From IMG/VR virus record IMGVR_UViG_2579778807_000004: a stretch of DNA of 44,314 nucleotides. The stretch is one strand, 5' to 3'. This stretch comes from a virus. Taxonomy: Duplodnaviria; Heunggongvirae; Uroviricota; Caudoviricetes. The notes beneath the pieces were generated by a model, which made no database searches, was not told where the DNA came from, and worked only from the letters and a program-made list of their open reading frames with translations. The translations under genes were made by a program, and so were the position numbers. This document shows, one piece after another, positions 1 to 44,314 of this stretch; positions within the stretch are counted from its first letter, which is position 1, and each line of letters begins with the position of its first letter.

Positions 1-519
1 ATGTTTACATACAAAAAATCAATAACTATCATCATGTTATGCCTATCTGCCGGCATCTCTGGATGTCAATCAAATGCTGATGAGTATGCTGCTGACGTTT
101 ACGAAGCCAATCAATTAAATTCAAAGCAAGAAACTAAAACGGTTAATATCATTTCTGTTCTTCCCGCTAAAGTTGCTGTTGACAACACTGCAAATAAACA
201 AGCAGCTCAAACTTTCGGAGCTATTTTAGGCGCCGTTGCTGGGGGGGTTGCTGGACATAACGTTGGAACCGGAAGTAATCTGGGAACTGCAGCAGGAGCT
301 GTGGGTGGAGGGGCAGTTGGAGCAGCCGCGGGGACACTTGTAAAAGATAAATCTATTGTAGAGGGTGTTTCTTTAACCTACAAAGATGGAACAAAAATGT
401 TTACATCAACCCAAGTGGGCAAATCTTGTCAATTTACCCCAGGTTTAGCTGTTGTCATTTCGACAAAAAATAATGAAACCAGAATTCAGCCTAATGCCTC
501 TTGCCCTGAAAAAGCATAA
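1..519 (+). CDS. SlyB/Pcp-like outer-membrane lipoprotein (glycine-zipper family)
   Basis: Lipoprotein signal with lipobox ISGC; Gly/Ala-rich glycine-zipper stretch (GAILGAVAGGVAGHNVG...AAGAVGGGAVGAAAG) and overall pattern recalled from SlyB. Confidence 0.55.
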   Translation: MFTYKKSITIIMLCLSAGISGCQSNADEYAADVYEANQLNSKQETKTVNIISVLPAKVAVDNTANKQAAQTFGAILGAVAGGVAGHNVGTGSNLGTAAGAVGGGAVGAAAGTLVKDKSIVEGVSLTYKDGTKMFTSTQVGKSCQFTPGLAVVISTKNNETRIQPNASCPEKA

Positions 520-534
520 CACACAGTATCCATC

Positions 535-1071
535 ATGAAAAAAATACTCATAGCTCTTGTTGCTATACCTTTCTCTCTCAGTTTTGCCAGTTCCTTACAA
601 AGTCAACTTGCGGCAGTAGCTGAAGCAGAACAACAAGGAATCGCTGAAGAAAAAAGAGCAAATGACGCATATAAGGAAAATCTAGAGCGAGAAGCCCGTC
701 TGGAGCAGCAACGACGTGCCAGTGCAATTGAAGCACAAAATAGAAAAGCTGCAGCTATTGCTGCAGACAGAAAAGCCGCACGCGAAAAGTTAGAATCTGA
801 AATTAAGGAAGATAAGAAACGAGACATCGCATATGAAAATGAATTACGAAGTTTAGAAATTCAAAAACTAAAATTAGCTTTAGCTCGAGAAGAAGCTCGA
901 GTCAAAAGAGAGAATGATTTTATAGATCAAGAACTGAAGAACAAAGCAGCACAGACAGACATCCTTCAATCCAACGCAGATGCAAATAGAAATATTTCTG
1001 AAGGTGGGAAGGAGCTAATGAAAAGCACTGGAAAAGCCAAAGAAAAAGAAGCTAGTGGAATTTTTAACTAA
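535..1071 (+). CDS. Secreted Ala/Glu/Lys-rich coiled-coil protein of unknown function
   Basis: N-terminal signal peptide (MKKILIALVAIPFSLSFASS) then charged low-complexity helical sequence; starts 16 nt after the preceding gene. Confidence 0.45.
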   Translation: MKKILIALVAIPFSLSFASSLQSQLAAVAEAEQQGIAEEKRANDAYKENLEREARLEQQRRASAIEAQNRKAAAIAADRKAAREKLESEIKEDKKRDIAYENELRSLEIQKLKLALAREEARVKRENDFIDQELKNKAAQTDILQSNADANRNISEGGKELMKSTGKAKEKEASGIFN

Positions 1072-1165: not shown

Positions 1166-1759
1166 TCATAAAATTGCGCGAACTTCCGGTGTCATAGGCC
1201 ATTCAATATCCTGTGCAGTTGACGTATCAACACGCTTCAGCAACACCCGATATGTCTTCCATGCCGCCAGTAACGATGTCTCTTCCTCCGTTGCGATTTC
1301 CAGATCTGCAGCATCCTGAAGCGGCGCAATATGCTCACTGGCTACCTGCATCAGGTTGTTTTTTGTTTCTTCCGCCTCCCGGATCCGGAACAGTTTTTCT
1401 GCTTCCGTATCCTTCACCCAGGCTGTGCCGTTCCACTTCTGAAACTCCCCTTCCGGCGATAACCAGGTAACATTTTCCGGTAACGGACCGAGTTCAGAAA
1501 TAAATAACGCGTCGCCGGAAGCCACGTCATAGACGGTTTTACCCCGATGGTCTTCAACGAGATGCCACGATGCCTCATCACTGTTGAAAACGGCCACAAA
1601 GCCAGCAGGAATATCTGGCGGTGCAATATCGGTACTGTTTGCTGGCAGACCTGTATGAGGCGGAATATATGCGTCACCTTCACCAATAAATTCATTAGTT
1701 CCGGCCAGCAGATTATAAATTTTTATGGTCTGTGGTTGTTCACTCATTCTGAATGCCAT
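1166..1759 (-). CDS. tfa: Tail fiber assembly protein
   Basis: Near-identical to remembered lambda Tfa N-terminus ([38 protein letters not shown]...); start overlaps stf stop (TAATG). Confidence 0.92.
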
Positions 1760-4700
1760 TATGCAAGCCTCACAATATAGTTAAATGCGATGTTTTTGAC
1801 GGTGTTTTCCGCGTTACCAGCAGCGTTAACGGTGATGGTGTGTCCATGTGAGCCAATCGCAACCGAGTGCGTATGAGCACCAATACCGACAGTATGTGCG
1901 TGTGCACCTGCGCTTGCAGCAGTGCCGGACAGTGAGTGGGTATGTGCGCCAGCAGATGATGTTGCATAGTTTTGATTATGCACAACAGACAATCTTGTTG
2001 ATGCACTACCAGCACCGGAGTTAGCACTAGCCGTGTTCACGTTGGCTAGTGAGTGTGTGTGTGCTCCAGCCGAGTTTGTAGAGCCGCTCACACTGTGTGT
2101 GTGTGCCCCGGTGTTATTCGTAGATTTAGTGCCGTAATCAAACGACGATGTGGTTTTCGTACCCAAATCCGTACTTGATGCGCTGGCGCTGTGGGTGTGC
2201 GATTTAATGCCGTCCTGTTCCTGAGACAATACGGCACGACCACTGGCGGGCTTGCCCTTAATCGTCCAGCCACGCATATCAGGGATCACGCCTGACGGAT
2301 AAGCAACTGCAAGTTTCGGGTATGCAGATTTGTCAAAAGTCTGCCCCTGCATCAGGGCATAACCAGACGGAACGGTATCTGATGGCCACGGAATTGGTGC
2401 GCCAACTGGGTAGCTTTCTGGTGGAAGATTTTTCGAGGTATAAACTTCTGCCCAGTCTTCCTCAAAACCATAACCGTCTCTTGAAGAACGGTAGAACAGA
2501 CCACCATTTCTGTAATGCGCCTTCATCTGCAGGGTCCGGCAACTTCCGACTCCGGTATAGAAGTTAACCAGAATATAGCTGTCGCCAGAGCGGGTGACAT
2601 TGTAAGCGCCTGATTCGGCATTCCATGGAACGCCACCATCCGCATCGGCATATGTATCCGTTGCCCTTCTGGCAAAAGCAGCCACATGCGCGGCGGTTAA
2701 AGTAATATCTTTGGAACCATCAAACTCAACACCAGAAACCAGTCTTGGCGTTTGCAGCTTTGTTGCTGTTAATGCATTACCGTTCAGACTTGCGGACAGT
2801 TTGGTTCCAATAACCAGTTCGCCGGTTGCGTTATCAATAGCAAACGGTCTTAATGTATTCCAGCCACCATAAACATCACCTTGATTGGTAAGCAGCAGGT
2901 AAGTTTTAGCGCCATCATTACGCCATAATGCACCATACTCCCCACCTATCATTCGAATCTGATTACCACCACGCGCTACAATTTCGTCTGTGGCAAAAAG
3001 TTTTTTGCACGACAAGTTATCGTTAACGATTAACGAATGAGACTCATAAAAACCACGCCCACTCTTAAAATCAAGGATAACGTCCGCCGCGATACATTCA
3101 GTCGCCGGATTTGTTGCCCCAAACTTATAGGTCGTATCATTAACAACGAGATCAGCACCAGGTGCGGATATTGACAGGCCATCTTCAATAAACGCAAAAA
3201 CAGGGAAAGCAGCGCCATCAACATAGAACACAGAGCGCAAATCATCGCCCTTATTACTCATCATTATTGAGTGAATGGCTCGTTCATTGTTTTGATATTG
3301 CCAGAACATGCCATAAGCATAACGCCCCCTGTCAGTCCAGCCACCAGGCATAACAAATCCGTTAAACTCGCAGTTATTCATCGGATCGCCTGCGGTTCGC
3401 GTTGCCGTGGTGATAATGACTCTTGATGCCAGTTCGCTTACTGAGCCAGCAGAACGCATAACAACAACAGGGTAATATTTTCCAGATGTTGCACCTGCAG
3501 GAGCGTTAACCCGCACATAACGCATACCACGCTTATCAGCAAAGTCTGTTTTACTGACCGCGTTAATGTTGTTCAGGAAGCATCCCTTATCGGGTATATC
3601 AGCGCCGTTCTGGTCTTTCTGCAGACGTTTCTCTGCATTGTCATAGGCTGATTTTACTGCCTTTGGCGTTGCCGCCAGCGTTTCAGACGTACTGTTGGTC
3701 GCACTGCTGAGCTGTACTATCCCCTTTTTCGTCGTACTTGCATCCTCAAGCGCCACGGCGGATGCAATATCCTCTGCCCGTTTTGCCGCTGTCTCGGCGC
3801 GCGTTGCCGCGGATTCCGCCGTACTTTTGCTCTGTGCTGCCGCCGTCGCACTGCCAGCTGCCTCTGTCGCCTTCGTGGATGCTGTCGTGGCGCTGCCCTT
3901 CGCTGCGGACGCTTGTCTGGTCGCCTCATCTTTTGAAGCAGACGCCGATGATGCCGATGACGCCGCCGAACTGGCGGACGATGCGGCAGCCGTTTTTGAG
4001 GATTCTGCGCTGGTTTCCGACGCTTTCGCGTTCGTCTCGGATGTCTTCGCTGCGGAAGCAGACCTCGCTGCTGCGCTGGCCTGTTCAGTGGCTTCGCCAG
4101 CCTTCGTTGTGGCTGTTGAAGCAGACGATGCGGCACTTTCTGCCGATTTTCCGGCGGCGGTGGCACTGGCTGAGGCCTGCCCGGCACTTGTTGACGCGGC
4201 ACTGGCAGACGACGCAGCCGCTGTTTTTGAGCCTGCCGCAGCCGAGGCGCTCTGTCCCGCTGCCGTTTCAGAAGACCTGGCGTTTGTCTCAGACGTCTTT
4301 GCCGCCTTCGCGGAATTGCCTGCCGCCGTTGCCGAGGAAGCGGCACTACTGGCGCTTGATGATGCGTTCGTTTCTGATGATTTCGCTGCCTCTTTTGAGG
4401 CCGCCGCATCCCGGGCTGAGGTGGCTGCTTCTGACGCCTTCGTGGTCGCGGCGGATGCAGAAGTGGCTGCTGATTGTTGTGACGCTGCCGCATTCGTTTC
4501 TGACGTTTTCGCCGCAGCGGCACTGGTAGCTGCCGCGCTTTTTGAGGACTCTGCAGCAGCAGCACTTTTCGATGCTTCACTGGCCTTTGTTGATGCCGTT
4601 CCTGCGCTGGAAGATGCTGACTGAGCCGACGACGCGGCCTGTCCGGCTGACGTGCTGGCTGCGCGTGCTGAGCCTGCAGCATCAGTCGCATGGGTTGCCG

Positions 4701-5121
4701 CCTCACGTGCTGATGTGCCGGCATCGCTGGCTGACTTCTTCGCGGCTGCCGTGTTCTGTGCCACCGCGGACGCGTTACGCGCCACCTCTTCCACCATCAG
4801 TTCAAAACGGCGCAGTGCCTCAGGACGGGCATCATCCTCCGTCATGGCACCGAGAAAATCATTCAGCGTACCGGGTCGGGAATCTTCATACACGGTGATG
4901 GTCCCGGCATGTGACGGCGGGAATCCCTCCACCAACAGAATAACGCTGTACTGCCCGTACTCAACGTCCATGCTGTAACGCCCGGCTTCATCCGGATTTT
5001 CTGAGGCCAGCGTGTTTACCACCACCGTGGTGCTGTTACGTTTTGCTTTCAGCTGGATTGTGCAGTTCTGTACCGGTTTTCCTGTGCCGTCTTTCAGTAC
5101 ACCTGAAATCTTTACTGCCAT
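1759..5121 (-). CDS. stf: Side tail fiber protein (mosaic; lambda-like N- and C-termini, different central domain)
   Basis: [26 protein letters not shown]... matches lambda Stf; long Ala/Ser/Thr-rich repeat; [26 protein letters not shown] motif; C-terminal GAHTHS His-rich repeats. Start set at third codon (ORF track extends to 5127). Confidence 0.9.
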
Positions 5122-5131
5122 ATTCACCCCA

Positions 5132-5159
5132 CAAAAAAGCCCGCCTGAACCGGCGGGCT
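5132..5159 (-). terminator. Rho-independent terminator downstream of lom
   Basis: Minus-strand hairpin GCCCGCC-GGTTCA-GGCGGGC followed by TTTTTTGT. Confidence 0.55.
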
Positions 5160-5185
5160 GTCATAACACTGTGTTACCTGGCTAA

Positions 5186-5785
5186 TCAGAATTTATAACC
5201 GACACCCACGATGAAACCGTCAGTGCGCCAGTCACCACTGCCGGAGCCTTCATAAGCAATATCAATGGCCACGGATTCGGTCGGGTTAAACTGCACGCCA
5301 GCCCCCCACGCCAGAGACGTGTTGCTGTGGCGACCGTCATCACTTCCGGTCAGCACATCGTGCTTTTTCCCCTTGTTGTCAGTTACGCGAAGATAATCCC
5401 CGGAGAAAGTCGACACACGGCTGTAAGCCACACCCGCCATCGCATACGCGCTGAACCATTCATTCACGCGCACAGACGGCCCCGCCATTACGCTGAACCA
5501 GCGGTTACGAACGGAATCTTCATGCCAGCGGGTATCGCTGTAACGGGTCAGCTGGCGATTCTTGTCTCCTGCATAGCTGAATGACGTCACCAGCCCCAGT
5601 GTGTCCGTAAACTCATAACGGTATTTCACGTTAATCCCGTTCAGATCATCACTGCCGGGGACGTTCGTCGAGGCATGAAGATACCCCGCGCTCAGCGTGG
5701 ACTGATGTTCAGACGCCCATGCAGGCGCACCGGATACGGCCAGACAAATGGCTGCGGACAAAATTGCTGCACAAACTTTACGCAT
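5186..5785 (-). CDS. lom: Outer-membrane protein Lom (Ail/Lom family)
   Basis: Essentially identical to remembered lambda Lom (MRK.CAAILSAAICLAVSGAPAWASEHQSTLSAGYLHA...GFIVGVGYKF). Confidence 0.95.
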   Translation of the reverse strand: MRKVCAAILSAAICLAVSGAPAWASEHQSTLSAGYLHASTNVPGSDDLNGINVKYRYEFTDTLGLVTSFSYAGDKNRQLTRYSDTRWHEDSVRNRWFSVMAGPSVRVNEWFSAYAMAGVAYSRVSTFSGDYLRVTDNKGKKHDVLTGSDDGRHSNTSLAWGAGVQFNPTESVAIDIAYEGSGSGDWRTDGFIVGVGYKF

Positions 5786-5807
5786 AATTACCTCTCGCTT
5801 TTCTGCA

Positions 5808-5838
5808 ATAAAAAAGGCGTCATTCCTGACGCCCTTTA
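5808..5838 (-). terminator. Rho-independent terminator between J and lom
   Basis: Hairpin GGCGTCAGGAATGACGCC flanked by A/T runs on both sides. Confidence 0.5.
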
Positions 5839-5855
5839 TTGGGGTTATAAATATT

Positions 5856-8800
5856 TCAACGAATACTGATGCCGGAAGCGGCTTTTTTGGTCACAATCAC
5901 CGTACAGTCGGTGATATTGCCTGCCCCCTGATTGCCTTTCTGGAAAATCTTAAACTCCAGAGTGACGCTTCCCCTGCCACTCGGCATATCAATAACTGCA
6001 CTGTAACTACCGGGAATGGCCCCTTTAGTTTCTCTGGATGCGATTAATACGCCGTTTTTGCGAACTTCAAAACCATAACCCGTGTATCTTGTACCTCCCG
6101 GGTTATTACCACTTCCCGGATCGCTATACGCTATTCCGTTAAAGATAATGGGCGGAATAATGATTTGACGGTCAAAGTTATGATCATCGCTGATGGTGAC
6201 TGTAACCGTCCCGTTTGGTGTTTCCGTATTACCCCACGTACCAGCCTGTTTCGGGAATGATTTGGATACAGCTTTAACGAAGTCACCTCTGACCTGAGTC
6301 GCCTCCAGCATGCCCTTAATCGTACAGTTTTCATTTACCGTGACATTGTTGAGCGTCCCGGCGTTCGCATTCACACTGCCACTGATATCGGCATTTTTCG
6401 CCGTCAGCCGCCCGTCCGGTGTCAGGGAAAATACCGGAGGATTACCGCCGCTGGTAATGGTGGGAGCCGTCAGGCGTTTCAGGAACACTTCGTTCATGAA
6501 TATCTGATCGCCCTGCCCAACAAACATCGGCTTTGTGTTGCCATTCGCAGGATTAATCATCGCAATCCTGTCTGCCGCCAGCAGCACCTGACTCTGCATG
6601 CCGTCAGGGGTGTTCTCAATACCGGCACCAATACCCGCGATATAAAGGCGTCCGTCCTGCATCTGCTGCAGCTTCACAGCCCACATGCTGTTCAGGTTAT
6701 TATTTGTATCAACCTGAACCTTCTGTATCTGCTGAATTGCCGCACTCTGGTCTTCCAGTTTCTTATTGACGGTCTGCGTGATTTCATTGCTGACATCCGT
6801 AATGGACGTCCTGATTTCAGCCAGGTCAGGCGCAAGCTGACCGTTATCAATCTGCGTCCACAGCTCCTGAGCCAGATGGGTTTTCCCTATCTCGCCTTTG
6901 AAAAAATCCAGATAACCGGATGCATCATCACTCGGCTGACCAACAGCCTCCACGAATGCCGATTTGCCAACGGTGTTCACACTGCGGATATAAAAGTAAT
7001 AATCATGGCCCGGTTTGATATTGATACTGGCGGCTATCCAGTACAGCGCCGTGCCAAGATAGCGTGCTGTGGTTTCAACCTGCCTGATATCCGCAATCCG
7101 CTTTTCCGAGAACCAGAACTCAAACTGTACCGTCGGGTCATAAACGGCAAGATGCGGCGTGGCGGTTATCTGAAAATAGCCCGGCGTCAGCTCAATCCTC
7201 GACGGTGCTGCCGGTGCGGCAATCCGGAACGATACCGACGCCGGATCGCCCTGCTGTCCCCAGGCATTTGCCGCCCGGACTGTCAGCCTGTAGTTTCCCA
7301 GCGCCAGCTGCGTGAAGCGGTATGTGGTTTCCGTCGTCCGGGCCGTGCTGACCAGCCGCTCACTGCCGTCATCCGCTGCCACGGTCAGGCGAAGCATAAA
7401 GCTCACACCCTTCACCACCTTCGGCGTGTCCCAGCGCGCCAGCACCTGGTATTCACCGCTGTCTGCGGTGACTTCTGCGGTCAGGTGCTGCACCGCTGGC
7501 GGCGTGACACCATTCACCGTGCCGCTCTGGTCGCCGTCAAAGTGCGCCCCGTTATCTACGATGGCCTCTTTTTCCGGTACATGCTGCACGGCGGTGATGG
7601 CATACGTGCCGTCATCGTTCTCACGGATACTCACGCAGCGGAACAGGCGCTGGCGCAGCGTCGGCAGCTTCAGCCCCCATACGCTGTATCCGGCAACGCC
7701 GTCAGGAACACGGCTCACTTTTACCTTCACGCCGTCGGTGACGGACTGGACCTCCACGCTGACCGGATTGCCACTTCCGTCAACCAGGCTTATCAGCGTG
7801 GTACCGGAGGATGGCAGCGTGATTTCACGGTCGAGCGTCAGCGTCCGGGTCTGGCTGTTCACAGCCAGCACGCGCCCGCCGATGCTGATCCCCGCATAGT
7901 CATCATCGCAGATTTCAATAACATCACCCGGCACATGGCGAAGCCCTTCTGCGCCCACGCTGAAGTCCACGGTCTGCGTTTCCAGCAGTTCTGTTTTAAT
8001 CAGCCACAGCCCGGCGCGGTGCGCCTGCCCCCGGCTGGTACAGCCAAAGGCATCCATTTTCGTGACGTTACGACCGTAACGGGCAATGGCCTGCGTGTCC
8101 TCCACAAGCTCTGTCGCCGTCTCCCAGCCGTTATTCGGGTCAATCCAGTTCACCTCAACGGCATTATGGCGGTCCTTCAGGGCGCTGAAGCTGTAGCGGA
8201 ACGGCGCACCATCATCCGGCATCACCACATTACTGCGGTTATAGGTCCACACCTTATCCGACGGTCGGTCCTGCACGAACGTCAGCGTCTGCCCGTTCCA
8301 TACCGGCATACAGCGCATCGCAGAGCAGAAATCACTGAGCACATCCCACGCCTTGCGCTGTGTGGTCAGGTACGCATTACAGGTGATGCGCGGCTCCGTG
8401 CCGCCAAAACCGTCCGGCACCGACTGGTCGCAACACTGGCCGATGACATACAGCGCCCATTTATCCACATCTTCCGCACCAAGACGTTTACCCATGCCGT
8501 AGCGCGGGTGGGTCAGCATATCCCACAGACACCAGGCCATGTTGTTGCTGTATGCTGGCTTAAACGTTCCGTCCCAGATACCGCTGTATTGCCGCGTCTG
8601 CGGGTTATAATTCGACGGCACCTGCAGAATACGCCCGCGCAGATGATAATTACGGCTCACCTGCTGGCTGCCGAACTGCTCCGAGTCCACCTGCACGCCG
8701 ACCAGTGCCGTGTTCGGGTAGCCCTGTTTCACATCGATAATTTCGGTGTATGACGACCAGAGCGTTTTGTTCTGCAGCTGGTCTGTGGTGCTGTCCGGCG

Positions 8801-9353
8801 TCATCCTGCGCATCCGGATATTAAACGGGCGCGGCGGCAGGTTATCCACCACCACAGAGGCCAGGTACTGCGAGGTGGTTTTGCCTTTAATGGTGATGTC
8901 TTTTTCCGTCACCCAGCCACCGTTACGTTGTATCTGAACCAGCAGGCGGACTTCCGATGGATTCCTGTCCCCCTTTGAGGTGGTTTCCACCAGTGCCTGC
9001 ACGCCGAAGGTAAAACGCAGTCGGTCGATGTTTGCCGACGTGATGGTCCGGGTGATCGGCGTGTCGTATTTCACTTCCGTACCCAGCACCGTCTCGGAGC
9101 CGGAGGATTCAAATCCCTCCGGCGGTGTCTGCTCCTGCTCACCGGCCCGGAACACCACCGTGACGCCGGATATATTGGTATTCCCCTCACTGTCCAGCAC
9201 CGGCGTACTGTTCAGCAGCACGCTTTTTAATCCATCCACCGGACCTTCAATCGGCCCTTCGCTGATGGCATCAATCACACTCAGCAGCTGCGTGGATTTC
9301 AGGTTGTCCTTCGCTTCGCGCGGGGTATGCCCCTTACTGCTGCCTTTACCCAT
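5856..9353 (-). CDS. J: Central tail fiber / host specificity protein J with divergent C-terminal receptor-binding region
   Basis: N-terminal ~780 aa match remembered lambda J nearly residue for residue; C-terminal ~380 aa differ from lambda. Confidence 0.95.
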
Positions 9354-9413
9354 TCCTCACGCTCCATAAACGACAAAACCGCCCGCAGGCGGTTTCACAT
9401 AAAACATTTTGCA

Positions 9414-10061
9414 TCAGCGACCAATCACCACAACCTGACCACCGTCCCCTTCGTCTGCCGTGCTGATCTCCTGAGAAACCACGCGTGACCCCACGCGCAT
9501 TTCCCCGTACAGAACAGGCAGAACATTGCCCTGGGCAACCATGTTATCCAGTGAGGAGAAATAGGTGTTCTGTTTGCCGTTATCTGTACTTGCTGCCGTG
9601 GGCGTCCTGGCTTTCGGTGCCAGCATCTGCGCCACTCCGCCCAGGATCATACTGGCCCCTGCCGCATACATGCCCGATACAGCCGCGGCACCCAGCCAGC
9701 CCACAGGGTTCCACCATGCCACCGCAATCAGCGCCGCCCCCAGCACCACCTGAAACACACCGCCACTTTTAGCTCCCGCCAGACGCGGCACGATGTGGAT
9801 CACGGCACCATTTTCCAGCGGCTCATTCAGACGGGCTGATAATTCGTTTTCACCTGTATCACGCCCGGCAATCCGTATCTGATACCAGCCCTCATTCAGT
9901 TTCTGACGAAACGCCGGGAGCTGTGTGACCAGTGCCCGGATGGCTTCAGCCCCCGTTTTCACACGAAGGTCGATACGGCGACCAAATCGTTGCAAATCCC
10001 CGTAAAGGCAGATGCGTGCCATGCCCGGTGACGCCAGAGGGAGTGTGTGCGTCGCTGCCAT
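9414..10061 (-). CDS. I: Tail tip assembly protein I
   Basis: MAATHTLPLASPGMARICLYGDLQRFGRRIDLRVKTGAEAIRAL... matches lambda I; position between K and J. Confidence 0.9.
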   Translation of the reverse strand: MAATHTLPLASPGMARICLYGDLQRFGRRIDLRVKTGAEAIRALVTQLPAFRQKLNEGWYQIRIAGRDTGENELSARLNEPLENGAVIHIVPRLAGAKSGGVFQVVLGAALIAVAWWNPVGWLGAAAVSGMYAAGASMILGGVAQMLAPKARTPTAASTDNGKQNTYFSSLDNMVAQGNVLPVLYGEMRVGSRVVSQEISTADEGDGGQVVVIGR

Positions 10062-11745: not shown

Positions 11746-14700
11746 TACCGATATGCTCCACTTAACCGACCACCATCACGGGCCTGCTGTTGCATAAAGT
11801 CCGCTGCCGCTTTTTTCCCAAGGTCATAAACCACCTTCAGGGCAGCCGGACCTATCTGCCCGTTCGTGCCATCGTTATTGATCTCGATGTTGTACTGCGG
11901 GGCAAACATCGCCATACCTGAACCACCAATATCCGCCACAACCCCCAGCTTACCGTCAGCACCACGACGCAGTGGCAGAATGGCTTCAGGTCCAGCTTCC
12001 CCCATCACACCCGCGCCTTTTGCAAAAGCAAAAAACGTCGGACGGTTAACCACCGTGCCACTGTAACGACTCAAATCAGCAGACTGATAAATCCCCCCAT
12101 TGGCATTCAGGGAAAGGCTGCTGAGATCAAATCCCAGTACACTGCCAATCCCTTTTATCGATTTCATCATGGTTGCCTGCGCCAGGATTTTCGCCATATC
12201 TGACAGCACAGAAGAGGTGAAGGATTTGAAATTGAGTTTGCCGGTAGTGACAAAAGTTGCCAGGCCATTTCCCATGTTGCTGAAGGCTGACGAGAACACC
12301 TGTTCTGCTGTTTCTGCCGTATTATCTGCATCCACGGTAAAATCCTGAAATGCACGCAGGACTCCGTTTTTCCAGTTACCCTGCACAACTTCAAGCTGTT
12401 GCCAGTAACGGCGATTCTCATTCAGTTGTCGGTTCAGGCTCTCCGTCAGCGCCTGCTCGGCCTTTCTGTAGTCATCCGTGTTATATGTCCCTTTCTGCTC
12501 ACTATCCCGCCTCAACTGCTCCAGCTGTTGCTGGTATTTCTGGCGAAGACTCAGTTGTACCTGATATCGCTGTCGCTGCTGATCACCCATACCCACCGTG
12601 GCGATATCCAGGTCATGTTGCTGACGCTGAGCGCGCTCTTCTTCAGCCAGTTGACTGGTCAGCTGAATTGTTTTTTTCTTCAGCTCGTTGAGTGCCGTCT
12701 GTTTCTGAAGCTCCTGCTGTTTTACATCCAGCAGCGTCAGTGCCTGAATCAGTTCATCTTTACGGGCCAGCACACTCTTTTCATCTGCCGTCAGTTTTTT
12801 CCCGTCCAGGTCGCTGATGCGCTGCTGCAGAGCCAGAAGCTGTTTATGCGCTTCTGTCATCCTTTCCGTGGCAATGCCTGCTGACTGTCTGGCAGCAGCA
12901 ATCTGTCCTTCCACCTGTGCCTGTTGCTGACTGTACTGCAGCAATAACCGGGTGGCCTCATCATTACGGGTTTCGCGTGTTTTTTTCTTACCGGATGCCA
13001 CGGCTTTCTCGTAACGTTCATTTTCACGTTGTATCGCCGCATCCCTGACAGCCTGATCGGCGTACTGCATGGCATTAATACGCGCAATTTCACGCTGATG
13101 TCGTGCTGCTTCCGTTTCATTCATCCGGTTCAGTGCAGCATTTTCAGCATTACGGCGTTTCTGTTGCTCCTGATAATTCCGCTCTGCCTGCTCTTTTGCA
13201 TCCTGCAAATCCTTCTGGCGTTTTTTCTCCTGAAGATCGTTAAGACGCTGCTGATCGTATTCAACCTGAGAAGATGATGCCGTCCAGGGGAGTCTTTTCG
13301 CCCGCGACACTTTCTCCTGTAAAGCGGCAATCTGTTCATCCAGCGAGTCTTCACGACCAATATTCATGGCCGCATCCCAGAAACGACTCCACAAATCAGA
13401 CAGATACTTCAGCGTACTGCCAAGCGCATTGAGGTTATTATCAATATCCGCAGTACGCCGACCGGTTTCCTCTGCCAGTGCAGACATGGCTATCCGTGCA
13501 GCATCACTGGACCGCCCCTGCTCCCCAAGGACGCGTATCTGCTCAAGCTGAGTGGCAGTAAGAAAATGCAGCTCATTGTCCAGAGCCTTCGCGGCATTTA
13601 CAGGATCATCCTTCAGCCGCTTAAACTGATTTATGGTATCGCTGACCGACTGGCCAACCGATCGCTCCATCTGTGCGGCAGCTCTCGCCACCATACCGAT
13701 ATCGTTTCCACGAAATGCACCACTCCCCACCACCTGAGCCAGCGCACCGGCTGCAGCATGTTGCGTGATACCATTCCCGGAAATAGCACGACTGAGCGTC
13801 CACAGCTGCCCGGCAGTGACTCCGGCATAATGCCCCGTCAGCGACAACTGGCGGTTAAATTCTTCCCCCTCCTTCTGACCGTCATACCAGGCTTTACCCA
13901 GACCATAGACGGCCGCGGCAATACCGCCAATAACCCCGCCAAGCATCATGCCTTTCGGTGACATCAGTGTGTCTATCCATCCGGCACGGTTAGCCAGCGT
14001 TATCCCGGATCCCCTCAGCGCCCCTAAATTGCCGCGGGCCAGTTCACCTATCAGAACGCCTATCTCCTGGCGGGCTGCTGCACTTTTCAGACCCAGCGAA
14101 TGCGTGGCTTTTCCTGCCTGCTCCATTTTGCGGATATACACTTCTGCAGCACTGCTTACCCCCAGCTGGGCTGCCTTAGCACGAAGCAACTCAGAAGATG
14201 AAAGATTCAGGCGGGTTGCCTGCTCTTTAAGCTGACGGATAAACGCCACTTTCTGTCGGGTAGCCTCTTCCTCAGCCTGTGTAAGAACACGGGTTTTCGC
14301 AGTAACCTCAGAAATCAGCGCCAGATAATCCTGCTGACCAATCCCGCCACTGTTTCTGGCCTGTCGGATCTGCTGCTGAATACGCTGTAATTCCTGCAGC
14401 CCCGCACTGGCCTGTTTCACACTGTCAATCTGACGATAAAACGCAGCAGCCGCTTTATCCTGAGCCTCCGCCAGAGCCATGGCCTGCGCCTGTTCCTCGC
14501 GCATTTTCTGGCTCAGTGCCTCCATGCGCTGGCGGGTTTTCTCCACCTCGCGGGCCATGCGTTCATGAGCCTGTGCGTTCTTCTCCACCGTCTGCGCATG
14601 GACGGATGCGGCTGTTGCAGCCGAAGAAGCCGCCTGCGTTGTCTGCCGGGCGGCCTGAGTCTGACGCTCCATAAAACGCTGCATACGGGCAGAAGACCGT

Positions 14701-28546: not shown

Positions 28547-29269
28547 CTAAGAAAATCTTGATAAATATTGGTGCGGAGGCACACCAAAATATCCTCTAAA
28601 AACACTTACAAAATATGATGCATTGTCATACCCGCATATTCCCGCCACCTTGCCGACAGTATGGTTACTGTAGATCAATAATCTTTGCGCCATCATCATT
28701 CGTTCTTCAAGAATTAATTTACTAAACGATAATCCTTCGTCTTTTAATTTTCTTTTTAACAAACTCTCGCTCATATATAATCTTGAAGATATATCACAAA
28801 GTCTCCATGACGCTGAGATATCCGAGTGAATAATAGCCTTAACTTTACAACCTAAGCTATTAAGACTTCCGAACAAAAAACTTTGCACTATTTTCTCTGA
28901 AGATAAGACAGCAAGACATGCAAGTGATATTTGATTTCTAACTACATCCACGGTTTTGCTATCACAATTCAAGCATGCAACCAAGTTCTTTAACAATGAA
29001 AAATCTTCACATTCTACTATCAAGTATGACGGATAAAACCTTCTTACAGAAAAAGGTGAGAGTGTGTAGTTTTTAAAGAAATCATTAACTGTTTTCTCCT
29101 CAACATCTACGATCATTAGATGATCTGTATTTGACGAAAAAAGATCTTTTAAATTGTATTCAATGAGGACAGCATTTCCTTTTTTAAACAAAATATCTTC
29201 TTTACCAATTCGGACACCAAACGAGTTCAACACCAAAATGATAGAACATATGTATGGCATATTATCCAC
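28547..29269 (-). CDS. AraC-family transcriptional regulator (AT-rich cargo gene)
   Basis: C-terminal AraC-type HTH (...GKVAGICGYDNASYFVSVFRGYFGVPPHQY); AT-rich codon usage unlike phage core. Confidence 0.8.
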   Translation of the reverse strand: MDNMPYICSIILVLNSFGVRIGKEDILFKKGNAVLIEYNLKDLFSSNTDHLMIVDVEEKTVNDFFKNYTLSPFSVRRFYPSYLIVECEDFSLLKNLVACLNCDSKTVDVVRNQISLACLAVLSSEKIVQSFLFGSLNSLGCKVKAIIHSDISASWRLCDISSRLYMSESLLKRKLKDEGLSFSKLILEERMMMAQRLLIYSNHTVGKVAGICGYDNASYFVSVFRGYFGVPPHQYLSRFS

Positions 29270-29666: not shown

Positions 29667-30626
29667 TTAATTCACCATCAGTCTTAGAGCCAGTTCTTCC
29701 GGATAGGGATCGAAGTAATTCTGTGTAAGCAAGTAATCATTAGGATACTCACCCAGATAATGCTTCAGCAGAGTCAACGGCGCAAGAAGAGGCAATGTGC
29801 CAAAGCGATAGTTAAGTATAACCTCGCTCAACTCTTTACGCTGGCGTGTACTTAAGTAATTACTAAAATACCCCTGTATATGCATCAGCACATTCGTGTG
29901 ATTTTTACGTGATGCTGGTTTTCTGAGAATCGCCATCAGATTATCACGATACACCTCAAAGTATGATTCAAGGTCCGCCCACTCGTGTATTGCAGCCACA
30001 AATGGTCCCATATCTTTATAGCCTGCCTGGCTATGCGCCAACAACTGAAGCTTATAACGACTATGAAAAGCTAATAACTCTCTTCTTGATAATTTCTCCT
30101 TGTAAAGATGATTGAGCTCATGCAAAGCAAAAACTCTTTCAATAAAATTCTCACGAAGCACTGGATCATGTAATCGCCCATCCTCTTCAACCGGTAGCCA
30201 GGAAAACTTTTCCATCAAAGTGCTCGTAAATAGTCCCACTCCATCTTTACGACCTCGATTACCATTTTCATCATAGACACGCACGCGCTCCATGCCACAG
30301 CTGGGAGATTTAGCACAAACCACAAACCCCGATACATCCTTTAATTTGTCCATATAAGAACGACTAAACTCTGTCATTCTCTCTGTCACATCCTCATTCT
30401 GGTCGTGGCTGAAACACATCCGTATATTTCCTTGCTTCGAGCGCACAAGTCGTAGAGCAGGACGCGGAACTGGCAGCCCTATAGCCATTTCCGGACATAC
30501 TGGTCTGAATGTTACCCATTCCACTAATTTGTCCATTAAAAAGTCATCTCTTTTGTGACCACCATCAAAACGAACAGCAGAACCGCCCAAACAACCGCTG
30601 ATCCCAATCACAGGTTTTTTTATCAT
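29667..30626 (-). CDS. DUF523/DUF1722 two-domain protein (YbgA-like; N-terminal domain resembles TudS-type Fe-S proteins)
   Basis: 319 aa; N-terminal Cys-containing motifs (ISGCLGG, CPE, CAKSPSCGME) then YbgA-like C-terminal domain; recalled from memory. Confidence 0.55.
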   Translation of the reverse strand: MIKKPVIGISGCLGGSAVRFDGGHKRDDFLMDKLVEWVTFRPVCPEMAIGLPVPRPALRLVRSKQGNIRMCFSHDQNEDVTERMTEFSRSYMDKLKDVSGFVVCAKSPSCGMERVRVYDENGNRGRKDGVGLFTSTLMEKFSWLPVEEDGRLHDPVLRENFIERVFALHELNHLYKEKLSRRELLAFHSRYKLQLLAHSQAGYKDMGPFVAAIHEWADLESYFEVYRDNLMAILRKPASRKNHTNVLMHIQGYFSNYLSTRQRKELSEVILNYRFGTLPLLAPLTLLKHYLGEYPNDYLLTQNYFDPYPEELALRLMVN

Positions 30627-30818: not shown

Positions 30819-31343
30819 ATGAAGTTATGGCCTGTGTTGACTGGCATTGCACTCTCTTTCACTCTTATAGCATGTAAGGCCCCGACACCACCTAAAGGTG
30901 TGCAGCCGATTACAAATTTTGACGCCAACCGCTACCTCGGAAAATGGTATGAAATAGCTCGCCTCGAGAACTGGTTCGAACGTGGTCTGGAACAAGTCAG
31001 CGCTACTTATGAAAAACGGAACGACGGAGGGATTCGCGTACTTAACCGTGGATACGATCCAACGAAAAACAAATGGAGCGAGAGCGAAGGTAAAGCATAC
31101 TTTACTGGAGATACTAAAACTGCAGCGTTGAAAGTTTCGTTTTTTGGCCCCTTCTATGGTGGCTATAATGTAATCAAGCTGGATGATGAGTATAAGTATG
31201 CTCTTGTCAGTGGTCCGAACAGAGAATACCTATGGATTCTGGCAAGGACCCAAACTATTCCAGATAATGTAAAAGCAGACTATGTGCGTACCGCTCAAAA
31301 GTTGGGATTCAATGTCAATGAACTATTATGGGTTAAACAATAA
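30819..31343 (+). CDS. Outer-membrane lipocalin (Blc-like)
   Basis: Lipoprotein signal (LIACKAP) and strong similarity to remembered E. coli Blc (NFDA.RYLGKWYEIAR...FERGLE...KVSFFGPFYGGYNVI.LD.EY..ALV.GP.R.YLWIL.RT). Confidence 0.88.
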   Translation: MKLWPVLTGIALSFTLIACKAPTPPKGVQPITNFDANRYLGKWYEIARLENWFERGLEQVSATYEKRNDGGIRVLNRGYDPTKNKWSESEGKAYFTGDTKTAALKVSFFGPFYGGYNVIKLDDEYKYALVSGPNREYLWILARTQTIPDNVKADYVRTAQKLGFNVNELLWVKQ

Positions 31344-34155: not shown

Positions 34156-35712
34156 TTACCTATCAAACAACGGATGTATTACAAAATCTCTCTTCATATC
34201 AGTAATATCCAAATTAGGTTTATCAAAAGATGAATATATAATTAAAGATGCTGTTTTCCTTATGCCAACCACGCCTACGACGAACCAGACTTTAAGTAAC
34301 TCCTCAAAATTCATCAATATTTTTGTATGTTGATCATCCTCTTTAACTACAGTCAATCTATCAAGTAAATGCTGCGATATATCATCTTTTACTGCTTGTC
34401 CTATGTTTGAGACTGTAAAATCAGAAAATGAAATCAAGGAAAGCACATCCAAATATTCTTCGATAAACGGATATATGCTTTTCCATTCTGTAACCAAAGC
34501 TCTCTTTCTGGACGAATAAAATTTCTCTTCGGCAATTAACACAATATTTTCATTCATGTTAACCATACCATCGCACTCAGAAAGACATATATTTACGAAA
34601 TTAATTGCATCTCTAGGCCTAAGCATTGTTCTGTCAAGGATATAATCATCTGCTCCAATACCTTCAACTGTAAAATTAAAAATATCCTTCATTAATACAG
34701 ACTTATTTGATTGATATCTATTTTTAACCAAATGGTTAATTCTAGCATCAATAATCTCTCTTATTTCCGTTTTATTCCATGATATGGAATATATTAAAGA
34801 TTGATCTTTCTCATCCTGCCTTAAACTACTTTTATAAATTCCCATTAAAATATCTGTTCTTATTGATATCAGAACCTTAACCGACTTTATATCTAATAAT
34901 TCTCGAAAGGCCTCAAGAAGAGCATTAATAAAGTCATATCTGATGGCGCTCGTGCTTAACCAAGATTTATCTAAATCATCGATACTGATTACTATTCTAA
35001 CCTGGTTTGAGTCAGCGAACTCCTCTTTAAGTATTTTAATAAGTTCTTTTTGTTTAAAAAGAAGTTCACGACTCACATAACTTGAAGTTTCTGATTGTAT
35101 TTTGGCTGTATCAGAATTAGATATTTTACCACCCACACCAACAGCGGAATTTCCGAGTTTGAATGACAAATCACTTTCAAGCTTGTTACTTATTTCAATG
35201 AGCGCTTTATCATTGAAGAAATTTTCTTTAAATTGTTCAATATAATCATTCGCAACTTCTGGTTTATACGGTTTCTTCTTACCACCAATAAGATCTTTAA
35301 TTTCCTCAAAAAAGCTTTGATAGGAAGAACGATAAACGGCTGGTATAACTTTCATAAGTAATACATGCAGCCATAACGATTTATAAAACCCACGTAAATC
35401 TATCCCTTTCGAGATCAAATCAGATATAAACACATTGTTATTAATATGTTCAAATATCGTATTTTCTGCCTCTATTGTGTCATGCAGCTTAATATTTCCT
35501 TTGTCTAATATTTTTTTAAGCAACGCAGACTTACCGCTTCCTGTTCTTCCAACAATAATTCTTCTTGTAAAATCAGGATTCTTCTCAGTAGAGTCAAAAT
35601 TCACAATACCTTTAAAAACATTGGACTCATAAAAACAAGCATCAAGATAAGAATCAGTTTCCGCCTCTAATTTTCCAATCTCATCATTATTTCTGAATTT
35701 ATAGGCATTCAT
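34156..35712 (-). CDS. P-loop NTPase of unknown family in an AT-rich island; candidate standalone anti-phage defence / abortive-infection protein
   Basis: Walker A IVGRTGSGKSALLKKI near N-terminus; Walker B-like VRIVISIDDLDKSW ~185 aa later; Arg-containing motif RTMLRPRD; strikingly AT-rich versus flanking phage genes; occupies the relBE-equivalent hotspot. Confidence 0.7.
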   Translation of the reverse strand: MNAYKFRNNDEIGKLEAETDSYLDACFYESNVFKGIVNFDSTEKNPDFTRRIIVGRTGSGKSALLKKILDKGNIKLHDTIEAENTIFEHINNNVFISDLISKGIDLRGFYKSLWLHVLLMKVIPAVYRSSYQSFFEEIKDLIGGKKKPYKPEVANDYIEQFKENFFNDKALIEISNKLESDLSFKLGNSAVGVGGKISNSDTAKIQSETSSYVSRELLFKQKELIKILKEEFADSNQVRIVISIDDLDKSWLSTSAIRYDFINALLEAFRELLDIKSVKVLISIRTDILMGIYKSSLRQDEKDQSLIYSISWNKTEIREIIDARINHLVKNRYQSNKSVLMKDIFNFTVEGIGADDYILDRTMLRPRDAINFVNICLSECDGMVNMNENIVLIAEEKFYSSRKRALVTEWKSIYPFIEEYLDVLSLISFSDFTVSNIGQAVKDDISQHLLDRLTVVKEDDQHTKILMNFEELLKVWFVVGVVGIRKTASLIIYSSFDKPNLDITDMKRDFVIHPLFDR

Positions 35713-43018: not shown

Positions 43019-44314
43019 ATGAGAGAAGTTGAAATGAAATATCCGACAGGCGTGGAAAACCATGGAGGGAAATTACGTATCTGGTTTGTTTATAAAGGCG
43101 TAAGAGTCAGGGAAAATCTGGGGGTTCCTGACACAGCAAAAAACAGGCGCGTTGCAGGTGAACTACGCTCCTCTGTTTGTTACGCAATAAAAACTGGTGT
43201 TTTCGACTATGCAAAACAGTTTCCCTCCTCACGCAATCTGGAAAAATTTGGTGAGGCCCGACAAGATTTAACCATAAAAGAACTGGCTGAAAAATTTCTG
43301 GCACTGAAAGAAACTGAAGTCGCCAAAACATCACTCAACACATACCGTGCCGTCATCAAAAATATCCTGAGCATAATCGGTGAAAAAAATCTTGCCTCAT
43401 CGATTAATAAAGAAAAATTACTGGAGGTTCGTAAAGAGCTACTGACTGGATACCAGATCCCCAAAAGTAACTATATTGTTACACAACCAGGGAGATCGGC
43501 TGTAACTGTAAATAATTACATGACAAATCTTAACGCCGTGTTCCAGTTTGGTGTTGATAACGGTTACCTGGCAGATAATCCGTTTAAGGGGATCTCGCCA
43601 TTAAAGGAATCAAGAACCATTCCGGATCCTCTTTCGCGGGAGGAATTTATCCGTCTTATCGATGCGTGCAGAAATCAGCAAGCAAAAAATTTATGGTGTG
43701 TTTCTGTTTATACTGGCGTTCGCCCTGGTGAGCTGTGTGCACTTGGATGGGAGGACATAGATCTGAAAAATGGAACAATGATGATCAGGAGAAATTTAGC
43801 AAAAGACCGTTTCACGGTACCAAAAACACAGGCGGGAACCAATCGGGTCATTCATCTTATTAAGCCAGCAATCGACGCTCTCCGGAGTCAGATGACATTA
43901 ACGAGACTGAGTAAAGAGCATATCATTGATGTTCACCTCAGAGAGTATGGCAGAACAGAAAAACAAAAATGCACCTTTGTTTTTCAACCTGAAGTGTCAG
44001 CGAGAGTAAAAAATTATGGTGACCATTTTACCGTTGACTCAATAAGGCAGATGTGGGACGCAGCGATAAAACGTGCCGGACTCCGCCATCGAAAATCATA
44101 TCAGTCGAGACATACTTATGCCTGCTGGTCGCTGACAGCTGGTGCCAACCCGGCATTTATAGCAAACCAGATGGGCCATGCAGATGCGCAAATGGTATTT
44201 CAGGTATACGGAAAATGGATGTCTGAAAACAATAATGCACAGCTAGCTTTGTTAAATACACAGTTAAGCGAGTTTGCCCCAACCATGCCCCATAATGAAG
44301 CAATAAAAAATTAA
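43019..44314 (+). CDS. Tyrosine site-specific integrase
   Basis: C-terminal catalytic motifs (RHTYACWSLTAGANPAFIANQMGHADAQMVFQVYGKW with terminal Tyr); N-terminal arm-binding-like domain; start may be the ATG 5 codons downstream. Confidence 0.9.
   Translation: MREVEMKYPTGVENHGGKLRIWFVYKGVRVRENLGVPDTAKNRRVAGELRSSVCYAIKTGVFDYAKQFPSSRNLEKFGEARQDLTIKELAEKFLALKETEVAKTSLNTYRAVIKNILSIIGEKNLASSINKEKLLEVRKELLTGYQIPKSNYIVTQPGRSAVTVNNYMTNLNAVFQFGVDNGYLADNPFKGISPLKESRTIPDPLSREEFIRLIDACRNQQAKNLWCVSVYTGVRPGELCALGWEDIDLKNGTMMIRRNLAKDRFTVPKTQAGTNRVIHLIKPAIDALRSQMTLTRLSKEHIIDVHLREYGRTEKQKCTFVFQPEVSARVKNYGDHFTVDSIRQMWDAAIKRAGLRHRKSYQSRHTYACWSLTAGANPAFIANQMGHADAQMVFQVYGKWMSENNNAQLALLNTQLSEFAPTMPHNEAIKN

Follow-up and report, generated by a model that had tools for sequence, protein, structure and literature searches.

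A lambda-like prophage carries a diverged yfgH-yfgI gene pair as an accessory cassette beside its tail fiber genes

The 44,314-nt stretch of DNA in IMG/VR record IMGVR_UViG_2579778807_000004 (Caudoviricetes; hereafter, the window) opens with two closely spaced genes that lie beyond tfa, the tail fiber assembly gene of a lambda-like prophage. We are nearly certain that these genes, encoding an outer-membrane lipoprotein (positions 1-519, + strand) and a DUF5384 protein (535-1071, + strand), constitute a diverged paralogue of yfgH-yfgI, a locus that is conserved in the chromosome of nearly every E. coli. With its flanks, the pair forms an accessory cassette ("moron") of ~1.7-1.8 kb within the prophage, with a promoter-like upstream region of its own. 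On balance, we favor the view that the prophage thereby supplies an extra, diverged YfgH-YfgI unit that would strengthen the outer membrane of the lysogen. The families concerned are already known, and a phage-borne pair has stood in the annotation of phage P7 for two decades, yet it has not been studied; a literature search found no paper on phage-borne yfgHI, and YfgH itself was only recently described as a stabilizer of the outer membrane.

The open reading frames (ORFs) comprise 172 and 178 codons, respectively, and are separated by 15 bp (520-534). An earlier note, made by a model from the sequence alone, had described two closely spaced + strand genes with export signals, and this description held, with a lipobox in the first product and a Sec signal peptide in the second. 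As that note also remarked, the window begins exactly at the ATG of the lipoprotein gene. Names attached to homologues in databases ("YfgI" and "nalidixic acid resistance protein") pointed to yfgH-yfgI of E. coli K-12 (b2505/b2506), where yfgH (519 bp; 5793-6311 of locus L013) and yfgI (540 bp; 6327-6866) are likewise separated by a 15-bp spacer. The lipoprotein is 71% identical to K-12 YfgH over 172 residues without gaps (E=1e-79), and the DUF5384 protein is 62% identical to K-12 YfgI. Of 5426 complete genomes of E. coli, 5416 hold the chromosomal pair, which a sensitive DNA search located at ~68% nucleotide identity to the window, and three hold the window's version. Core and accessory copies were found within one genome in CP053787 (at two places) and in Escherichia sp. 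E1V33 (L019 and L032).

The two genes form an obligate unit: of 74 informative loci, drawn from a one-genome-per-species set that spans Enterobacterales, Pseudomonas, Pasteurellaceae, Aeromonadales, and Alpha- and Betaproteobacteria, 73 have a YfgH-like ORF immediately before the DUF5384 gene and in the same orientation. The 15-bp spacing shared with K-12 suggests a single operon, and the spacer (520-534) has no obvious Shine-Dalgarno sequence. No YfgH-YfgI fusion was present among the best 150 of 293 DUF5384 representatives; one candidate, P0366 (409 residues), was rejected because its N-terminus is a repetitive Ala/Asn/Asp-rich region with no Pfam match.

Comparison of the window with a related copy in a prophage remnant (L012) revealed 11 substitutions in the lipoprotein gene, all of them synonymous, and 12 synonymous and three non-synonymous codon changes in the DUF5384 gene, as well as 11 differences within a 94-bp non-coding stretch downstream of the pair. 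Since prophage copies that are 2-3% apart in DNA show change dominated by synonymous substitutions, both ORFs can be taken, on this comparative evidence, to be real genes rather than chance ORFs. The pair is intact in prophage remnants that have lost most of their phage genes, and in all nine other loci examined besides L019, where the copy is probably frameshifted. These patterns indicate that the pair is under purifying selection and is selectively maintained.

The lipoprotein carries a signal peptide (residues 1-21) with a KK-containing n-region followed by a hydrophobic core, and a rule-based check identified the lipobox ISGC at residues 19-22, with Cys22 as the predicted acylation site and Gln at +2. 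Cys22 is invariant across 50-52 homologues. Nine GxxxG motifs fall within residues 73-111, and the protein matches Pfam PF05433 (Rick_17kDa_Anti/Gly-zipper 2TM) at 26.8 bits versus a cutoff of 24.2. In an AlphaFold2 (AF2) model of the monomer, helices at residues 63-87 and 93-112 form a glycine-zipper hairpin (residues ~63-112) with beta-strands on either side (residues 44-61 and 117-162), and this strand/helix-hairpin/beta-domain topology is clear despite a predicted local distance difference test score (pLDDT) of 62. A profile of the lipoprotein family matched SlyB (PDB 7OJF) at E=1.5e-9, aligning query residues 10-162 with target residues 7-153, and SlyB (7OJF_A) was also the sole significant PDB match in Foldseek (E=2.5e-7; template-modeling (TM) scores 0.48/0.56; model pLDDT 62). 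Homology to SlyB, though distant, spans the full length of the lipoprotein, which is SlyB-like at the superfamily level and YfgH at the family level. Thus the "SlyB-like glycine-zipper lipoprotein" of the earlier note stood as to superfamily, by profile and by fold, but not as to precise identity, the protein being a YfgH paralogue. The comparison with chromosomal slyB that the same note proposed gave ~27% identity to SlyB, nearest relatives among YfgH proteins, and a DUF5384 partner, which together speak against orthology. In NCBIfam, only weak, sub-cutoff matches to glycine-zipper lipoprotein equivalogs (YcfJ-type PRK11280, YiaD, and EexN) were obtained.

In the PHROGs collection, the matches of the pair are phrog_1094 (unknown function) and phrog_1277, which gives the lipoprotein the label "DNA methyltransferase." We rejected this label as a misannotation, since the lipoprotein is a 172-residue lipoprotein with a glycine zipper, a lipobox and homology to SlyB. 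The same label is attached to YfgH-like lipoproteins in RefSeq records NC_050152, NC_031129, NC_042128, and NC_019445 and appears to have been propagated, and record OR339795 names the pair "minor tail protein" and "tail tip protein."

The second protein has a Sec signal peptide (residues 1-19, MKKILIALVAIPFSLSFA|SS) and matches Pfam DUF5384 (PF17358) over profile positions 1-145 of 145, at 156.3 bits versus a cutoff of 25 (E=7e-46). Its mature form of ~159 residues consists of 17.6% Ala, 15.1% Glu, and 11.3% Lys; 40% of the residues are charged (32 K/R and 32 D/E), and large hydrophobic residues are few. AF2 predicted one unbroken helix spanning residues 4-177 with a mean pLDDT of 87, which, if straight, would make the mature protein ~24 nm long (159 residues x 0.15 nm). 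Across the whole protein, the power of hydrophobic periodicity was 0.29 at 3.5 versus 1.18 at 3.6, and windowed values were low. The earlier note had called the product an Ala/Glu/Lys-rich coiled-coil protein; the composition was borne out, but the coiled coil is unproven, given the weak heptad periodicity and the predicted single charged helix, and in light of the model a charged single alpha-helix seems at least as likely. Within the family, the C-terminal half (residues ~93-178) is conserved out to Pseudomonas and beyond, while the N-terminal half is variable; in the window protein, the C-terminal SWFN tail, whose Trp is almost invariant in the family, reads GIFN, with Ile in place of Trp. 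A PDB sequence search with the DUF5384 profile returned no meaningful match, and a literature search found DUF5384 mentioned in no paper. Some DUF5384 proteins (P0106, P0118) bear the UniRef name "Hydrocephalus-inducing protein Hy-3," evidently an artifact of low-complexity (Ala/Glu/Lys-rich) similarity.

The pair is convergent with tfa (1166-1759, - strand; 197 residues; Pfam Caudo_TAP, E=2e-42) and lies on the strand opposite to the late genes, i.e., tfa, the side tail fiber gene stf (1759-5127, -), lom (5186-5785, -), and J (5856-9353, -). Since these four genes follow the pair and an integrase gene occupies the far end (43019-44314), the window is a lambda-like prophage, running from its tail-fiber-distal end through to the integrase. 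The earlier note had called for leftward extension to the attachment (att) site or host junction, and this succeeded in part. In public assembly GCA_000692855.1 (L008), the only one identical to the window, the locus matches it (100% over 10,519 bp) and adds 520 bp of AT-rich sequence upstream of the pair (9482-10000), beyond which a 5.5-kb run of Ns (3971-9481) masks the prophage's own att site. The boundary was therefore read from L001, which holds a related prophage integrated at the lambda att site, in place of the window's own junction. There, an exact copy of the 15-bp att core of lambda is situated at 8843-8857, right after ybhB, with the pair at 12001-13071 and tfa', stf, lom, and J beyond it. 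Since the pair thus lies 3.1 kb inside the att core, from which it is separated by two hypothetical genes and an IS1, it lies within the prophage boundaries. The contrary case that the earlier note had envisaged, host genes outside the att site and conserved in prophage-free strains, was looked at and does not describe the window copy.

Counted from the lipoprotein ATG, the cassette spans about -590 to about +1190, and it is 94-100% identical among loci. At least five unrelated positions in the chromosome hold it, and at each one it adjoins the tfa 3' end: the lambda att site beside ybhB/bio (L001), the pao/ykgJ region (L002 and L005), yfdC-int (L006, L007, L009, and L010), a position next to Rac end genes (L008), and a prophage remnant at icd (L012), where e14 resides in K-12. 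In the icd remnant, the pair sits between an HNH-domain gene and tail fiber remnants. Homology blocks of all pair-bearing loci reach at least window position 1213, and the cassette has its right-hand junction at the tfa 3' end (to about 1190-1213), which accompanies the pair in every case. The tfa/stf module itself occurs in 4670 of the 5426 genomes (9378 places), and in genomes lacking the pair its matches start only at window position 1188. Since the pair is present in 3/5426 genomes versus 4670/5426 for the adjoining module, it is a rare insertion beside a very common one and bears the signature of a moron. The G+C content of the two genes (41.6% and 38.7%, respectively) compares with 49.2% for the rest of the window. 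That the pair is cargo at the tail-fiber-distal end beyond tfa, as the earlier note proposed, therefore agrees with its place next to tfa at five or more sites and inside the lambda att core in L001.

Two of these sites deserve further description. At yfdC-int (L006/L010, 6551-13097), the cassette is located between an integrase gene plus a gene for a 423-residue PLD-domain protein on one side and tfa on the other, with Psu-like and Ogr/Delta-like genes beyond tfa. In CPS-53 of K-12, the gtr O-antigen-modification genes hold the same position, which is thus a classical slot for lysogenic-conversion or defense cargo. In L008, on the far side of the N run (2902-3970), window 1197-2265 has a 98.3% identical counterpart in the form of a second tfa/stf C-terminal module, which is followed by a pinR-like invertase gene and ynaE/ynaM (the Rac prophage end); the prophage thus abuts a Rac-like remnant or is nested with it.

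Mobile carriers of the pair are not confined to lambda-like prophages. In P7, the pair corresponds to upf50.5/upf50.0 and is flanked by the immunity region (c4-icd-ant) on one side and the tail-tube/sit operon on the other. It is also carried by P1-like phage-plasmids (SJ46, RCS47) and ~200 plasmid records, mostly non-mobilizable and 55-150 kb in size, and by mobilizable ColE1-type plasmids (ColRNAI, MOBP) of 4-7.5 kb from Enterobacter and Citrobacter (e.g., NZ_CP056189.1, 4.2 kb), where it is apparently the only gene set not devoted to mobilization. The small-plasmid pair is the nearest relative of the window pair (91% and 69% identity of the mature proteins). In neighbor-joining trees, computed without bootstrap, the window and small-plasmid pairs group together in a clade whose neighbor is the chromosomal Escherichia/Citrobacter/Kluyvera clade, and P7 falls on a separate, deeper branch; this topology suggests at least two captures of the pair by mobile elements. 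Phage TL-2011b (NC_019445.1/JQ011317.1) was rejected as a third phage carrier, since its yfgHI lie in host flank: a 3.5-kb stretch of the record (~41251-44784; L004 1-3534) is 99.15% identical to the K-12 chromosome and holds pdeF', yfgG, yfgH, yfgI, and the start of guaA, next to which the prophage resides.

Upstream of the pair, a TTTACT-16-TAAAAA motif occurs 67 nt before the ATG (L008 9934-9961), and a strong AAGGAG Shine-Dalgarno sequence lies 7 nt before it. In K-12, E. albertii, a Citrobacter, and a small ColE1-type plasmid, a TTTACT(T) box at -59 to -69 is likewise followed by TAAAxx 16-18 nt downstream; P7 has a TTTACT box at -50 and no clear -10-like element. Judging from this conservation, the TTTACT-16-TAAAAA motif might act as the promoter of the pair. 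In L001 (11114-11811) and L002 (11074-11771), an IS1 is inserted at -173/-174 with the -67 motif intact. The two IS1 copies are in opposite orientations, in unrelated E. coli genomes and at different chromosomal sites, and their shared position reflects either a hot spot for insertion or a rearrangement mediated by IS1. Farther out, about 470-530 bp before window position 1, there is also an 8-bp tandem repeat, CTTGGGGG, whose copy number varies, with 8.5 copies in L006 (9466-9533), at least six in L008 (9482-9529, ended by the gap), four copies of CTTGGGGT in L007, and essentially none at the equivalent place in L012. An Rfam search of the upstream region and the pair found nothing relevant, only IS009 inside tfa. 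As for regulation of the chromosomal homologues, the S. Typhi yfgHI orthologue srgIL is regulated by SdiA and acyl-homoserine lactone, whereas an E. coli fusion was not (PMC11619404).

Downstream, an 11-bp GC-rich hairpin (1133-1158), found by RNA folding of 1066-1170 on both strands and not assigned to either, sits where the yfgI-like gene and tfa converge, between their stop codons. The fold of 1066-1170 gave z = -3.2 on the + strand. On the - strand, the hairpin is followed by UUUUAUAUAUU, a U-tract, which the + strand lacks, and it may provide a terminator-like end to the tail fiber/late transcript. A consensus terminator scan did not call this hairpin.

What the pair might do for its carrier can be approached through recent work on chromosomal YfgH, all of it from a single preprint (bioRxiv 10.64898/2025.12.22.696046). 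YfgH localizes to the outer membrane, is induced by depletion of LpxC, LptD, or BamA, and co-purifies with BamA, LptD, OmpF/C/A, LamB, and TonB-dependent receptors. Deletion of yfgH causes sensitivity to sodium dodecyl sulfate/ethylenediaminetetraacetic acid and to BamA/LptD depletion as well as loss of outer-membrane proteins, and overexpression rescues; suppressors map to clsA for yfgH as against mla for slyB, and AlphaFold 3 predicts SlyB-like rings of YfgH (bioRxiv 10.64898/2025.12.22.696046). By analogy, we lean toward a model in which the lysogen transcribes the prophage pair toward the late tail operon and independently of it. The lipoprotein would be acylated at Cys22 and, with Gln at +2, sorted to the outer membrane, where its glycine-zipper hairpin would oligomerize laterally into SlyB-like rings that enclose lipid patches and outer-membrane proteins. 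Such rings would keep the membrane intact when lipopolysaccharide packing or outer-membrane biogenesis is disturbed, as with chromosomal YfgH, and the DUF5384 protein would be exported into the periplasm, where this long charged helix would act with the lipoprotein. The net effect would be an envelope sturdier against detergent or bile, chelators, and similar stresses, and therefore a fitter lysogen or plasmid host. Taken together, the repeated capture of the pair, its intactness in decaying prophages and its position as the apparent sole non-mobilization genes on some 4-kb plasmids argue that the two genes are a self-sufficient, selectable envelope trait that works as a unit.

Several considerations weigh against a role in strengthening the envelope. 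The functional data come from that one preprint and concern a chromosomal YfgH from which the window lipoprotein differs at 23% of mature residues, and for YfgI the sole reported finding is a nalidixic acid phenotype (PMC3536626, as cited in PMC11619404). Confidence in the AF2 monomer model of the lipoprotein is low (pLDDT 62). An automatic scan of the upstream region and the pair for promoters and terminators gave counts no higher than in shuffled sequence, and it did not rank the -67 motif, which is only conserved and consensus-like. Lastly, for a lysogen that already holds the core pair, a second copy brings no obvious gain.

The main alternative, which we regard as unlikely, is superinfection or entry exclusion by receptor masking, in which rings of the lipoprotein would corral receptors (LamB, OmpC/F/A, and TonB-dependent transporters); in a variant, the long periplasmic helix would obstruct DNA ejection, so that the host is shielded from phages or from conjugation. 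Functionally this would resemble Cor/Llp (FhuA) or TraT (OmpA). The location of the pair fits such a role, being a tail-fiber-distal cargo locus always linked to the tfa 3' end and, in the yfdC-int remnants, lying between int and tfa, where CPS-53 of K-12 has its gtr genes; linkage to tfa can, however, be explained simply by recombination within widely shared tfa sequence. The receptors in question are among the proteins that co-purify with chromosomal YfgH, and apparent sole non-mobilization genes on tiny mobilizable plasmids would suit a self-protective trait, but the closest characterized relative has a housekeeping role in envelope stability. There is also a weak resemblance to the surface-exclusion lipoprotein TraT: the Pfam TraT profile (PF05818) matched residues 53-120 only, at E=6.6e-5, and TraT decamers took ranks 2-3 and 6 in Foldseek. 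The profile score, however, is 23.2 bits against a cutoff of 31, and the Foldseek matches (E=0.29-1.1, TM 0.22-0.30) are not significant, for which reasons membership in the TraT family was rejected. The EexN model scored 13 bits versus a cutoff of 33, PADLOC defense models gave no match at E<=0.1, and no exclusion family was matched in PHROGs. We give still less credence to the more specific proposal that mobile yfgHI pairs are a new type of entry exclusion, in which rings fence receptors and the ~24-nm helix blocks ejection or mating-pair formation; if true, it would be convergent in mechanism with TraT and Cor/Llp yet evolutionarily distinct.

A role in the lytic cycle, whereby the pair would hold the outer membrane together until lysis or modulate its spanin-mediated disruption or vesiculation, is improbable. 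An activity that stabilizes the outer membrane could in principle shift the timing of lysis, and in P7 the pair is located directly upstream of the late tail-tube/sit operon in the same orientation. In the lambdoid prophages, however, the pair is convergent with the late operon, with a hairpin between them, and what it has kept upstream is a region of the yfgH type, not a late promoter; moreover, it is intact in remnants without any lytic genes and occurs on ColE1-type plasmids that are not phages at all. Finally, it is very improbable that these are ordinary host genes outside a mis-delimited prophage, or a decaying and functionless passenger: although the homologous pair is a core chromosomal locus, the TL-2011b record holds yfgHI only through 3.5 kb of included host flank and the att site beside the window pair is masked by an assembly gap, the host-gene version is refuted by divergence (only about 68% DNA identity to the core locus), by coexistence with that locus in one genome, by the multiple unrelated sites next to tfa, and by the position inside the lambda att core in L001, while purifying selection argues against decay.

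Elsewhere in the window, further apparent prophage cargo comprises genes for an AraC-type regulator (28547-29269, -), a 2-thiouracil desulfurase/DUF1722 protein (29667-30626, -), a Blc-like lipocalin (30819-31343, +), and a 518-residue KAP/nSTAND-like P-loop NTPase (34156-35712, -), the last of which could be a defense gene. The Rfam IS009 match (RF02111; 1218-1416, -; 207 bits versus a gathering score of 117) lies wholly within the C-terminal half of the tfa coding sequence.

The portability of the pair (about 1.2 kb plus the promoter region) makes it an experimental handle on the role of YfgI and on whether extra or diverged YfgH rings alter envelope robustness or the entry of phages or plasmids. 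The analysis also exposed two database problems, namely the propagated "DNA methyltransferase" label and the host flank within the TL-2011b record.

Among known systems, the closest is yfgH-yfgI of K-12, which matches the window pair in the order and lengths of its genes and in the 15-bp spacer. In their proteins the two have in common the lipobox, the glycine zipper, two pairs of conserved Cys residues, and the DUF5384 core at the C-terminal end, and a similar TTTACT promoter-like element lies upstream of both. The two differ in setting, since the K-12 pair lies between yfgG and guaA and the window pair beside tfa in a prophage; in G+C content (47-49% in K-12 versus about 40%); and in phylogenetic position, the window pair grouping in the tree with plasmid copies, outside the chromosomal Enterobacteriaceae clade. 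SlyB, described as a PhoPQ-regulated glycine-zipper lipoprotein and seen in structures 7OJF/7OJG (SlyB-BamA by cryo-electron microscopy), resembles the window lipoprotein in its lipobox, beta-strand, two-helix Gly-zipper hairpin, and beta domain, and is likely, by analogy, the mechanistic model for it, i.e., oligomeric rings around lipid and outer-membrane proteins; unlike the window gene, slyB has no DUF5384 partner.

Of the mobile pairs, that of P7 is the same two-gene unit on a temperate phage, annotated in its record as an outer-membrane lipoprotein and a membrane protein similar to E. coli K-12 proteins. Its mature identity to the window pair is, however, only 78% and 52%, and it branches separately in the tree, so it is probably an independent capture; nor is it beside tail fiber genes. 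The pair on small ColE1-type plasmids has the same promoter-like element as that of the window but differs in its plasmid carrier, its lack of linkage to tfa, and a spacer of 10 rather than 15 bp. As regards established envelope morons (Lom and Bor of lambda; Cor of phi80, N15, and HK022; Llp of T5; and TraT of F), the likeness is one of type: small exported or lipidated outer-membrane proteins that the resident element expresses and that are encoded as cargo in the vicinity of tail genes. One of them, lom, is located 4 kb away in the same prophage. No sequence homology to these proteins was detected save the sub-threshold TraT signal, and whereas they are encoded by single genes, the window carries two genes that form a unit and derive from a core envelope locus.

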